64,000 bases of DNA from Candidatus Omnitrophota bacterium (GTDB lineage Bacteria; Omnitrophota; Gorgyraeia; JAHJTE01): positions 773,624 to 837,623 of the forward strand of contig JAHJTE010000001.1 in the NCBI GenBank assembly GCA_018830005.1, given 5' to 3'. Position 1 is the first letter of the stretch, and every line of letters starts with the position of its first letter. Both the position numbers and the translations under genes were made by a program. This document shows positions 11,422 through 12,370 of this stretch, piece after piece. The notes below the pieces were generated by a model. It made no database searches. It had not been told where the DNA came from and saw only the letters and a program-made list of their open reading frames with translations.

Positions 11422-11673
11422 AAATACGTATTACGTTGTGCGTACTGCGCACGGCGTTAAAAAATGTTGCGGCTTCAGGAAGTAATTCCTGAAATAAATC
11501 TGGCTGTATGCGGGAACATCCGTGTATCTCAAAGTACCAAAAGGTAAAAATCTTTGAGTGCGGAAAATCCGCAGGGAAGTCGTAATTGACCCCTCAGAGA
11601 TCACACGCCAGCTCCTAATAAATGTTAGGATGAAGATATGATCCACGCCTTATGGCGACATAGGGAGAACGTG
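11422..11673 (+). mobile_element. ORF-less intron (group I-like) in 23S helix 69, inserted between ccgt(aa) and (aa)ctataacgg, about E. coli 1911-1917
   Basis: About 252 nt interrupt the universally conserved H69 sequence GGCCGUAACUAUAACGGUCC. With the boundaries placed at U|...G|, the junction is compatible with group I splicing (5' exon ends in U, intron ends in G). Two shared bases leave the exact junction ambiguous. Confidence 0.6.
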
Positions 11674-11693
11674 AACTATAACGGTCCTAAGGT

Positions 11694-12370
11694 TGACGTA
11701 ACAACGCTAGCCTGCTCCGAAAAATATCGGAGAATAATTACCAACTATATGCAGGAAACTCCTCAAAAAGTGTTGATACTAGCTCGACTATTGAGTCGGA
11801 GCAGTAAAAATGCAACATTCAAGGGGAAAATCCGCAGGGAAGTCTGAAAGGAGAAAATATGACCCCTCAGAGACCAAACGTTGGAAATCGTGGCAGAGTT
11901 TCGAGATTGACTGATGAATGGATTTCGGGTTTTATCGATGGGGAAGGATGTTTCCATATCGGAATCAGTAAACATAATGATTTACGAATAGGATATCAAA
12001 TCCTCCCAGAGCTAACCGTAGTTCAACACAAGCGCGATTTAGATTTACTTCATGAATTGCGTTCAACGATGAATTGCGGGGTAGTGCGAAGAAACCACGG
12101 AGATCGATTCTGTTGGAGAGTAAGAAATTTGCAAAATCTCTCAGAAGTGATAATTCCGTTTTTTGATAAACATCCGTTAAGATCAAAAAAATATGTAGAT
12201 TTTTTGAAATTCAGAAAAGTGGTTATGAAGATGCAAAAAGGGGAACATCTTACAAAGGATGGTTTCCAGCAAATAGTAAAAATTGCATCAAAAATGAATC
12301 GCTGTCAATCAAAAATGAAGCCAGATTTAAGAGAGAGTCCACTCCAGGATGAAAATTCTGGGTAATAGTG
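11694..12370 (+). mobile_element. Group I-like intron in 23S at position ~1931 (between cctaaggt and agcgaaattcc) carrying a LAGLIDADG homing endonuclease gene
   Basis: A 677-nt insertion. The 5' exon ends in U and the intron ends in G (..taatagtg|agcgaaatt). It contains the 168-aa ORF listed below. L1931 is a recurrent group I intron site in bacterial and organellar LSU rRNA. Confidence 0.7.
11859..12365 (+). CDS. Single-motif LAGLIDADG homing endonuclease (I-CreI-like size, 168 aa) encoded inside the 23S intron
   Basis: Motif ..DEWISGFIDGEGCFHIGIS.. (a LAGLIDADG variant). The size of 168 aa is typical of homodimeric LAGLIDADG enzymes. The ORF lies wholly within the rRNA intron. Confidence 0.8.
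   Translation: MTPQRPNVGNRGRVSRLTDEWISGFIDGEGCFHIGISKHNDLRIGYQILPELTVVQHKRDLDLLHELRSTMNCGVVRRNHGDRFCWRVRNLQNLSEVIIPFFDKHPLRSKKYVDFLKFRKVVMKMQKGEHLTKDGFQQIVKIASKMNRCQSKMKPDLRESPLQDENSG

Follow-up and report, generated by a model that had tools for sequence, protein, structure and literature searches.

Twin group I introns separated by a 20-nt exon in the 23S rRNA gene of a Candidatus Omnitrophota bacterium

Two insertions split a conserved string in domain IV of the 23S rRNA

The stretch of DNA analysed here, referred to as the window (64,000 nt; contig JAHJTE010000001.1 of Candidatus Omnitrophota bacterium), carries the only ribosomal RNA (rRNA) operon of its contig, which we mapped with Rfam and ARAGORN and in which the 23S rRNA gene is interrupted twice within domain IV. 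Both insertions, termed intron 1 and intron 2, are group I introns, and we consider it very probable that they are independent elements that lie 20 nt apart and are removed by self-splicing. Intron 1 has no open reading frame (ORF) and intron 2 encodes a LAGLIDADG homing endonuclease (Table 1). The insertion sites were obtained from a MAFFT alignment of the window 23S rRNA gene with rrlH of E. coli K-12, and E. coli numbering is used throughout. The first insertion (252 nt) lies 3' of U1911 and the second (677 nt) 3' of U1931, sites that are denoted L1911 and L1931, and the exons add up to 2981 nt after both introns are taken out. The motif GGCCGTAACTATAACGGTCCTAAGGTAGCGAAATTCC begins at position 1906 and, with insertions after 1911 and 1931, this conserved 23S string is split twice. 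The exon between the two introns, AACTATAACGGTCCTAAGGT (also written AACUAUAACGGUCCUAAGGU), is shared by both ribozymes, as its 5' three nucleotides join P10 of intron 1 and its 3' five nucleotides join P1 of intron 2. L1911 is located where the 5' stem strand of helix 69, which forms the intersubunit bridge B2a, passes into the loop of the same helix. At the DNA level the boundary of intron 1 could be placed anywhere from 1911 to 1913, because the intron starts with AA as does the exon. Among these choices only 1911 yields an exon-final U together with an intron-final G, and it also agrees with the P1, P10 and P9.0 pairings described below.

Intron 1 is a complete, ORF-less group I intron

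The Rfam group I model (RF00028) matches intron 1 with 60.7 bits, above its gathering score of 50, over positions 11449-11665 of the window and positions 1-253 of the model. For comparative analysis, intron 1 was aligned with 16 other ORF-less introns at L1911, and RNAalifold on these 17 sequences recovered P1, P2, P3, P4, P5, P5a, P5b, P6, P8, P9 and P9.0, to which P7 was added as a pseudoknot, giving 14 helices and 71 pairs that could be scored. Standard pairs fill 95.6% of the cells of this structure, a share that falls to 35-46% once the 3' strands are shifted by 1-3 columns, and 39 of the 71 pairs show compensatory change. In a shuffle test, none of 500 shuffles equalled the observed alignment on four of five measures and nine did so on the fifth, the number of further pair types. 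The window intron possesses every helix of the family, and its loop L6 is just six nucleotides long (GUAAUU). The 3' splice site is fixed by P9.0, which consists of three pairs immediately before the terminal G, as this helix covaries.

The guide sequence GUUGCGGCU accounts for both exon contacts. In P1, GCGGCU binds the exon GGCCGU and all 17 sequences have U•G at the 5' splice site, and its pairs in the relatives are invariant or G-U (17/17); P10 is formed by GUU of the guide with the AAC that opens the 3' exon. The core of the guide, UGCGGC, is invariant across the alignment and the flanking G and U are nearly so. The minimum free energy (MFE) fold of intron 1 likewise predicts P1. Compared to most relatives, the P1 loop (L1) carries an insertion of about 36 nt that folds as one 11-bp hairpin and leaves P1 and P2 undisturbed; two small hairpins, an arrangement considered for the same region, were dropped as the fold yields the single hairpin. 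Otherwise, insertions in L1 are found only in three metagenomic loci of the 17-sequence alignment (L132, L145 and L085), and these are also the nearest relatives of intron 1 (73-78% identity), likewise with a low guanine-cytosine (GC) content. The GC content is 44% for intron 1, 39% for intron 2 and about 40% for the window, as against 51-59% for most L1911 relatives, a composition that fits both introns being native to this host.

Being short, ORF-less and situated in the tip region of a helix, intron 1 could be mistaken for an intervening sequence (IVS) of the RNase III type, one whose excision without ligation leaves the 23S rRNA in pieces, as happens in Salmonella or Leptospira. We regard this as extremely unlikely, given that intron 1 has a full group I core, a guide, P9.0 and a terminal G, all with covariation, and that its full-length relatives encode homing endonucleases. 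A cut within helix 69 would, moreover, break an essential bridge. The probable IVSs in a survey of the candidate phyla radiation (CPR) are found at 23IS2 and 23IS4, 5' of the group I sites (PMC11270868); both insertions of the window have group I cores and are located at 1911 and 1931, away from those IVS sites.

Intron 2 belongs to the L1931 family of group I introns

RF00028 matches intron 2 in two segments, with 34.9 bits (E-value 5e-7) for 11687-12009 and 15.7 bits for 12247-12359, both below the gathering score because an ORF body of about 425 nt in L8 splits the match. It is nevertheless a group I intron, homologous to 79 introns at L1931 with covarying helices. To align these, the 5' 215 nt of each of the 79 introns were joined to its 3' 70 nt, and RNAalifold on the joined sequences recovered P1, P3, P4, P5, P5a, P5b, P6, P8 and P9.0, with compensatory change at 39 of the 57 predicted pairs. 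P1 of intron 2 pairs GCCU with the exon AGGU, again with U•G at the splice site, and the exon pairs hold in all 79 sequences; P10 pairs CGCU of the guide CGCUAGCCU with AGCG of the 3' exon. UGGUUUC at 12258-12264, a perfect complement to GAGACCA, was tried as the 3' strand of P7 and rejected, since the J8/7-P7' block given in Table 1 aligns both with the L1931 family and with intron 1.

The preliminary description of this DNA, which had proposed two group I-like insertions with an exon-final U and an intron-final G, was exact in the coordinates and lengths of both when compared with the rrlH alignment, and these splice-site bases as well as P1 and P10 are borne out for each intron. Of the comparisons with the Rfam group I models that it had suggested, the one for intron 1 passes the gathering score and the one for intron 2 does not, the group I identity of intron 2 being carried by the sub-threshold matches together with covarying helices in the relatives.

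Relatives of the intron 2 enzyme are encoded in at least 554 genomes, with one genome taken per GTDB species. Their hosts include Planctomycetota, Omnitrophota, Elusimicrobia, Verrucomicrobia, Chlamydiae, Chloroflexota, Gemmatimonadota, Deinococcota, Proteobacteria, Acidobacteriota, Bacteroidota, Nitrospirota, Thermosynechococcus and one member of the CPR, so these scans indicate a family spread across many phyla. Of the best 80 of these loci, nearly all have the gene in an insertion that directly follows …CCUAAGGU and measures about 630-700 nt, and in 79 the sequence inserted between ...CCTAAGGT and AGCGAAATTCC is of the size expected. Intron 2 is a routine member of the known L1931 family of Simkania, Thermotoga, Synechococcus and CPR bacteria. 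One locus (L068), in a metagenome-assembled genome (MAG) labelled Candidatus Woesearchaeota archaeon, has a bacterial-type L1931 intron with its endonuclease and a bacterial-looking helix 69 exon, which may be either a binning error or a real archaeal occurrence.

The endonuclease gene of intron 2 doubles as ribozyme core

The 168-residue ORF of intron 2 matches Pfam LAGLIDADG_1 (PF00961) in one stretch with an E-value of 4.2e-27 and has 229 homologues at E-values of 1e-5 or lower. Its best relatives in the PDB are I-PanMI (1.1e-47) and the 170-residue single-domain chain 5gkk_A (3.5e-47). The motif residues G24, F25, D27, E29 and G30 are invariant in an alignment of 28 homologues and the conserved acidic residue is present. 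We presume that the protein works as a homodimer cutting intron-less 23S rDNA near position 1931; I-ShaI, a CPR enzyme of the same class, cuts its own insertion site and forms dimers (PMC11270868).

A Shine-Dalgarno sequence (AGGAG, 11849-11853) and the initiating AUG (11859) are located in the P6 loop, and the codons for MTPQRP(N/D)V (11859-11882) make up the 3' strand of P6, J6/7, P7 and the start of P3', after which the frame continues through the 5' strand of P8 and has its body in L8. At the other end, the codons for RESPLQDENSG form J8/7, the 3' strand of P7 and the P9 hairpin, and the stop codon TAA (12363-12365) directly follows P9, 5 nt before the 3' splice site. MTPQRP and V8 are invariant in the 28 homologues and residue 7 is N or D (MTPQRPNV in the window), and the C-terminus is conserved as RESP.QDENSG. 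As the frame runs through core strands at both ends, the first and last residues of the enzyme are fixed by RNA structure, and the termini MTPQRP and RESP..DENSG offer a clean case of RNA structure dictating protein sequence. A similar double use of ORF and ribozyme has been reported for a cyanobacterial L1917 intron (PMC1995217). The single-motif ORF ending 5 nt from the 3' splice site was correctly described earlier, along with the overlap of its end with the 3' core. The overlap is wider than noted there, since strands of the 5' core are also coding, and in place of the kinship to enzymes of the I-CreI/I-CeuI type that was to be looked for, the protein, while of the LAGLIDADG class, is akin to the I-OnuI/I-SmaMI group and to 5gkk.

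Table 1. Positions in the window of the two introns, their structural elements and the genes of the rRNA operon
Feature	Position	Strand	Basis or remark
5' exon GGCCGU, P1 exon strand of intron 1	11416-11421	+	E. coli 1906-1911, 5' strand of helix 69
Intron 1, ORF-less group I, L1911, 252 nt, terminal G	11422-11673	+	Rfam RF00028
Intron 1, extra hairpin in L1, 11 bp	11433-11457	+	MFE fold, z = -4.76
Intron 1, guide sequence	11466-11474	+	pairing read from sequence and fold
Intron 1, P2 hairpin, GUAA loop	11475-11492	+	8/8 pairs covary
Intron 1, P3	11500-11504 with 11607-11611	+	family alignment
Intron 1, P4	11509-11514 with 11568-11573	+	family alignment
Intron 1, P5, P5a, P5b, A-rich bulge	11519-11564	+	family alignment
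Intron 1, P6	11574-11593	+	family alignment
Intron 1, P7 5' strand, bulged A	11597-11603	+	family alignment
Intron 1, P8	11613-11630	+	family alignment
Intron 1, P7 3' strand UGAUCC	11639-11644	+	one covarying pair (C-G 12, U-A 4)
Intron 1, P9.0	ACG 11645-11647 with CGU 11670-11672	+	two covarying pairs
Intron 1, P9, GCGA loop	11648-11665	+	family alignment
Intron 1, terminal G	11673	+	sequence
Exon between the introns, 20 nt	11674-11693	+	E. coli 1912-1931; rrlH alignment
Intron 2, group I, L1931, 677 nt, terminal G at 12370, homing endonuclease gene	11694-12370	+	RF00028, family alignment
Intron 2, guide sequence	11705-11713	+	sequence
Intron 2, P6	11837-11866	+	family alignment
LAGLIDADG homing endonuclease gene, 168 aa, single motif ISGFIDGEG	11859-12365	+	Pfam PF00961
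Intron 2, P7 5' strand GAGACC, coding	11870-11875	+	
Intron 2, P3' GUUGG, coding	11880-11884	+	P3 covaries
Intron 2, P8 5' strand, coding	11886-11894	+	P8 covaries
Intron 2, 3' core overall	12320-12370	+	Rfam, ORF alignment, family alignment
Intron 2, P8 3' strand	12320-12327	+	
Intron 2, J8/7 and P7 3' strand	12328-12340	+	
Intron 2, P9, CCAGGAU-GAAA-AUUCUGG	12344-12361	+	
23S rRNA gene	9436-13345	+	Rfam RF02541, 2572 bits; E. coli rrlH alignment
16S rRNA	start 6684	+	Rfam
16S insertion, 460 nt	8099-8558		between E. coli 1398 and 1399; E. coli alignment, Rfam
tRNA-Ile	8929		ARAGORN/Rfam placement
tRNA-Ala	9134		ARAGORN/Rfam placement
5S rRNA	13423-13539		Rfam/ARAGORN placement

Integrity of the two introns

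Several features weigh against two functional, spliced introns. The source is a metagenome assembly, intron 2 stays under the Rfam threshold, the hairpin within P1 of intron 1 is large and atypical of the L1911 family, hand pairing gives P7 of intron 2 no more than four standard pairs (G-C, bulged A, G-C, A-U, C-G, followed by C·A and A·G), and P4 of intron 2 contains an A·C mismatch seen in no other of the 79 sequences. Most of these, along with the lack of an endonuclease gene in intron 1, would fit a reading in which one or both insertions had decayed and no longer spliced, the operon being a pseudogene or its rRNA working with an insertion retained or fragmented. We consider such decay unlikely, since all core helices of intron 1 are intact with a score past the curated threshold, and the ORF of intron 2 is of full length with invariant catalytic residues, which speaks for an intact ribozyme as well because ORF and core overlap. 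In the alignment, the close relatives L001, L002, L007 and L008 share these weak P7 strands. In addition, helix 69 being bridge B2a, a working ribosome should not tolerate an extra 252 nt at the loop of this helix, and the location of the operon within a long contig (388 kb) suggests that it is the single copy.

An L1911 lineage with its own endonuclease

To find relatives of intron 1, a metagenome collection was scanned for G+AACTATAACGGTCCTAAGGT, in which the terminal G of the intron replaces U1911 and is followed by the exon. At least 120 contigs matched, of which 80 were retrieved, and with one found later via its protein these make 81 loci. Genuine L1911 introns, having the J8/7-P7 block directly upstream of the terminal G, are present in 72 of the 81, and the others are mostly U1911G variants or a different element. 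As examples of the former, the 23S rRNA of loci L125, L148, L107 and L159 reads GGCCGG-AACUAU or similar without an intron, G having replaced the conserved U1911, which is modified to pseudouridine in E. coli. In loci L089, L101 and L155, G+AACUAUAACGG follows a distinct AT-rich element, …AAUCCGUAGUAAGCUAAGGGAUACUUCG, that is without the L1911 core motif and may represent a different kind of intron occupying this site.

Both intron boundaries are present in 57 loci, and most of these introns open with AA(A/G)… and have the guide GUUGCGGCU 5-10 nt further on. They fall into three size classes, in which the smallest introns (198-308 nt) lack a real ORF, those of 387-595 nt have shorter ones (44-165 residues), and most of the largest (726-769 nt) have ORFs of 166-219 residues. 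The long ORFs match LAGLIDADG_1. A full-length ORF begins in an extension of P5, reads through P5', P4' and the 5' strand of P6, where the peptide GADNQQER is encoded by GGUGCGGACAAUCAGCAGGAAAGG, has its body in L6 and exits via P6', J6/7, P7 and P3', encoding ESSEAIRRAP. As L6 of the window intron is reduced to GUAAUU, we read intron 1 as a descendant from which the endonuclease gene has been cleanly lost, and the series of sizes at L1911 is consistent with such a loss, which is to be expected late in the homing cycle.

A representative L1911 enzyme shares 30% identity with the L1931 enzyme of the window and has 1278 relatives (clusters at 90% identity) at E-values of 1e-20 or lower in a protein collection. 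The members of the clusters of ten L1911 enzymes are labelled only as 'hypothetical protein' or 'LAGLIDADG endonuclease'. The lineage is abundant in soil and groundwater metagenomes, and its hosts could not be assigned by BLAST of the upstream 23S exon against the 80 labelled loci, the best identity being only 77-86%.

The two introns share a neighborhood and have separate histories

Non-exon sequence directly follows U1931 in 59 of the 72 metagenomic L1911 introns, and at least six of the remaining 13 seem to have an insertion near 1951. Loci L132, L124/L135, L126, L127 and L131 have L1911 introns without an L1931 partner, and the interruption of their exon sequence after GGGU(AAG) suggests that a second intron lies near L1951. 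Conversely, none of the best 80 genome loci found by the L1931 endonuclease has an L1911 intron. Nine of them (L003, L004, L013, L017, L038, L059, L061, L067 and L072) also carry an L1917 intron, with 14 nt of exon in between as in Synechococcus C9; the upstream element probably has an ORF of its own in L003, L004 and L038, where it reaches about 700 nt or more. One more (L006, 2617-3498, Parachlamydiales MAG OY970065.1) combines L1923 with L1931, with an 8-nt exon, CCUAAGGU, between the two. The closest relatives of the window endonuclease (79-82% identity) occupy L1931 next to an intact helix 69. The two introns of the window thus have separate histories, and their co-inheritance is ruled out by these intact helices. 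In one such relative (L205, 3699-5108, 82% identity) two further ORFs, LAGLIDADG_2 (195 residues) and LAGLIDADG_1 (167 residues), lie downstream in the same rRNA gene, which points to more introns in domain V.

The same observation, that the closest endonuclease relatives carry L1931 only, could also reflect an assembly chimera, in which organisms with an L1911 intron and with an L1931 intron were joined at the conserved exon, rRNA genes being the classic place for chimeric metagenome assembly. This appears very unlikely as the shared exon of 20 nt is below the usual assembly k-mers and one read would cover both junctions. Both introns are also low in GC like the host and unlike most L1911 relatives, and the twin arrangement recurs across independent metagenome contigs in the proportion given above.

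A LAGLIDADG target is about 22 bp long and centred on the insertion point. With sites 20 bp apart, the targets at L1911 and L1931 should not overlap, and so each intron could invade an allele already holding the other. An intron 20 bp away from a cut at 1931 would likely be copied along during repair, an idea that could perhaps explain why ORF-less L1911 introns are so frequent beside L1931 introns.

Proposed course of splicing and homing

From the positions, homology, covarying helices and intact ORF of the two introns we infer their splicing, endonuclease activity and mobility as follows. Intron 1 likely descends from a lineage with a LAGLIDADG gene in L6 that has been lost fully, and its guide GUUGCGGCU would align the two exons via P1 and P10. 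The gene of intron 2 would be translated from the Shine-Dalgarno sequence and AUG exposed in L6, in a frame that passes through P6', J6/7, P7, P3', the 5' strand of P8, the body in L8, P8', J8/7, P7' and P9. The enzyme, as a homodimer, would cut intron-less 23S rDNA around 1931 and repair would copy the intron in, and self-splicing would remove both introns from the transcript, restoring helix 69 and the strand that follows it.

More tentatively, and with a good deal of doubt, we propose that L1911 is an uncatalogued homing site, occupied by a large bacterial helix 69 lineage with its own LAGLIDADG family of new specificity (more than 1000 clusters at 90% identity) and usually found beside an L1931 intron, the ORF-less forms of which perhaps persist or spread by co-conversion when the L1931 endonuclease triggers repair 20 bp away. 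The L1911 enzymes would then be a natural source of a new LAGLIDADG specificity, directed at an rDNA sequence that is conserved universally.

The 16S insertion and the remainder of the operon

The 16S rRNA gene of the same operon reads …GUACACA up to 8098 (E. coli A1398), is interrupted by the 460-nt insertion and resumes with CCGCCCGUC…, with AAGUCGUAACAAGGUA further on at 8639 and the anti-Shine-Dalgarno end near 8690. Because of this insertion, the Rfam 16S match (6684-8146) misplaces the 3' end, and rRNA annotation and 16S/23S surveys will mishandle intron-bearing genes in similar ways. The insertion matches the Rfam model of group II domains V/VI with 35.1 bits (gathering score 40), ending exactly at 8558, and the group II D1-D4 model with 32.8 bits (gathering score 35). 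From these sub-threshold matches it looks like a group II intron and not an IVS, as had been supposed earlier, and it belongs to the same site class as the group II-like insertions of CPR bacteria at '16IS9, position 1400' (PMC11270868). Counted with the two group I introns, the operon would carry three introns of two classes.

The proteins encoded next to the operon have identical counterparts in MAGs of Candidatus Omnitrophota, among them MBU2541070.1 and MFH1491780.1. Compared to E. coli, the 23S rRNA gene has another, 74-nt insertion after position 278 (9716-9789), which may be an expanded variable helix or a short IVS. Across the window (1-64000) nearly all ORFs of at least 120 residues are on the + strand and the GC skew is positive in every 2-kb bin except 48001-50000, a very strong strand bias for 64 kb.

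Comparison with known introns

Bacterial rRNA introns are regarded as rare outside the CPR (PMC1995217, PMC11270868), and a non-CPR bacterium with three of them in one rrn operon is of interest on that account. However, the judgement of an unusually heavy intron load was the weakest claim made earlier about this DNA. Three introns per operon are uncommon for a non-CPR bacterium, but our scans find twin introns to be widespread and multi-intron 23S rRNA genes have been published: the 23S rRNA gene of Synechococcus sp. C9 has three, at L1917, L1931 and L2593 (PMC1995217), and the CPR survey found that 18.5% of non-CPR 23S rRNA genes have insertions of 100 bp or longer, and reported as many as 16 insertions in one rRNA gene and LAGLIDADG_1 genes at 23S positions 1917, 1931, 1952, 2593, 2604 and 2657 (PMC11270868). 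L1951 is also entered in the intron table of PMC1995217. In open-access text we found neither a report of rRNA introns in Omnitrophota nor a paper that names L1911, or any position from 1910 to 1915, as the site of a group I intron, the latter a weak negative, and the publication behind PDB identifier 5gkk was not found in the literature search. Thus, the L1911 site is apparently unnamed, while the mechanism and architecture of intron 1 seem standard for group I.

L1931 is, as had been noted earlier, a recurrent intron site (PMC1995217, PMC11270868), and its introns with single-motif LAGLIDADG genes are known from Simkania, Thermotoga, Synechococcus and organelles (PMC1995217). Intron 2 shares with the published examples the site, the length (677 nt versus 654-700 nt), a single-motif enzyme of similar size (168 versus 143-167 residues) and a complex P5 region. 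It differs in its host, an Omnitrophota bacterium as opposed to other phyla, in having a short hairpin between P1 and P3 where the cyanobacterial L1931 introns are described without P2, and in an ORF that starts in L6, the published L1931 ORF being placed in a peripheral loop only. At the protein level, the I-OnuI/I-SmaMI/I-PanMI family and 5gkk show strong similarity to the window enzyme (E-values of 1e-47 to 1e-31) and belong to the same Pfam family, but the fungal enzymes I-OnuI, I-SmaMI and I-PanMI are two-domain monomers, whereas the window protein has a single domain and should be a homodimer like 5gkk.

Coxiella burnetii is said to carry two group I introns in its 23S rRNA gene, at L1917 and L1951, as reported by Raghavan et al. 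in 2007, with an exon that is reportedly 34 nt long between them. Synechococcus C9, Coxiella and the window thus have in common several group I introns placed tens of nucleotides apart in 23S domain IV, and Coxiella also resembles the window in combining one ORF-less intron with one that has a LAGLIDADG gene. The upstream partner is at L1911 in the window and at L1917 in the other two, and the intervening exon is 20 nt in the window as against 14 nt for L1917 with L1931. The L1917 introns have a core closely related to that of the L1911 introns (…CUGGCUAUAUGCUGG…, J8/7 GAUGAAGAUAUGGUCC), likewise interrupt helix 69 and have an ORF that starts within the core and ends near P9. The site of the L1911 introns is, however, 6 nt upstream, their guide pairs with GGCCGU where that of L1917 pairs with AACUAU, and they have a P2 hairpin, unlike the L1917 introns. 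We call the L1911 endonuclease family distinct on the basis of a comparison with the L1931 enzyme of the window only (30% identity). The sole intron at 1911 that our searches retrieved is from the mitochondrial rnl gene of a green alga (PMC13190283); it occupies the same rRNA position and encodes a LAGLIDADG protein, but is a group II intron, whereas the bacterial introns described here are of group I.

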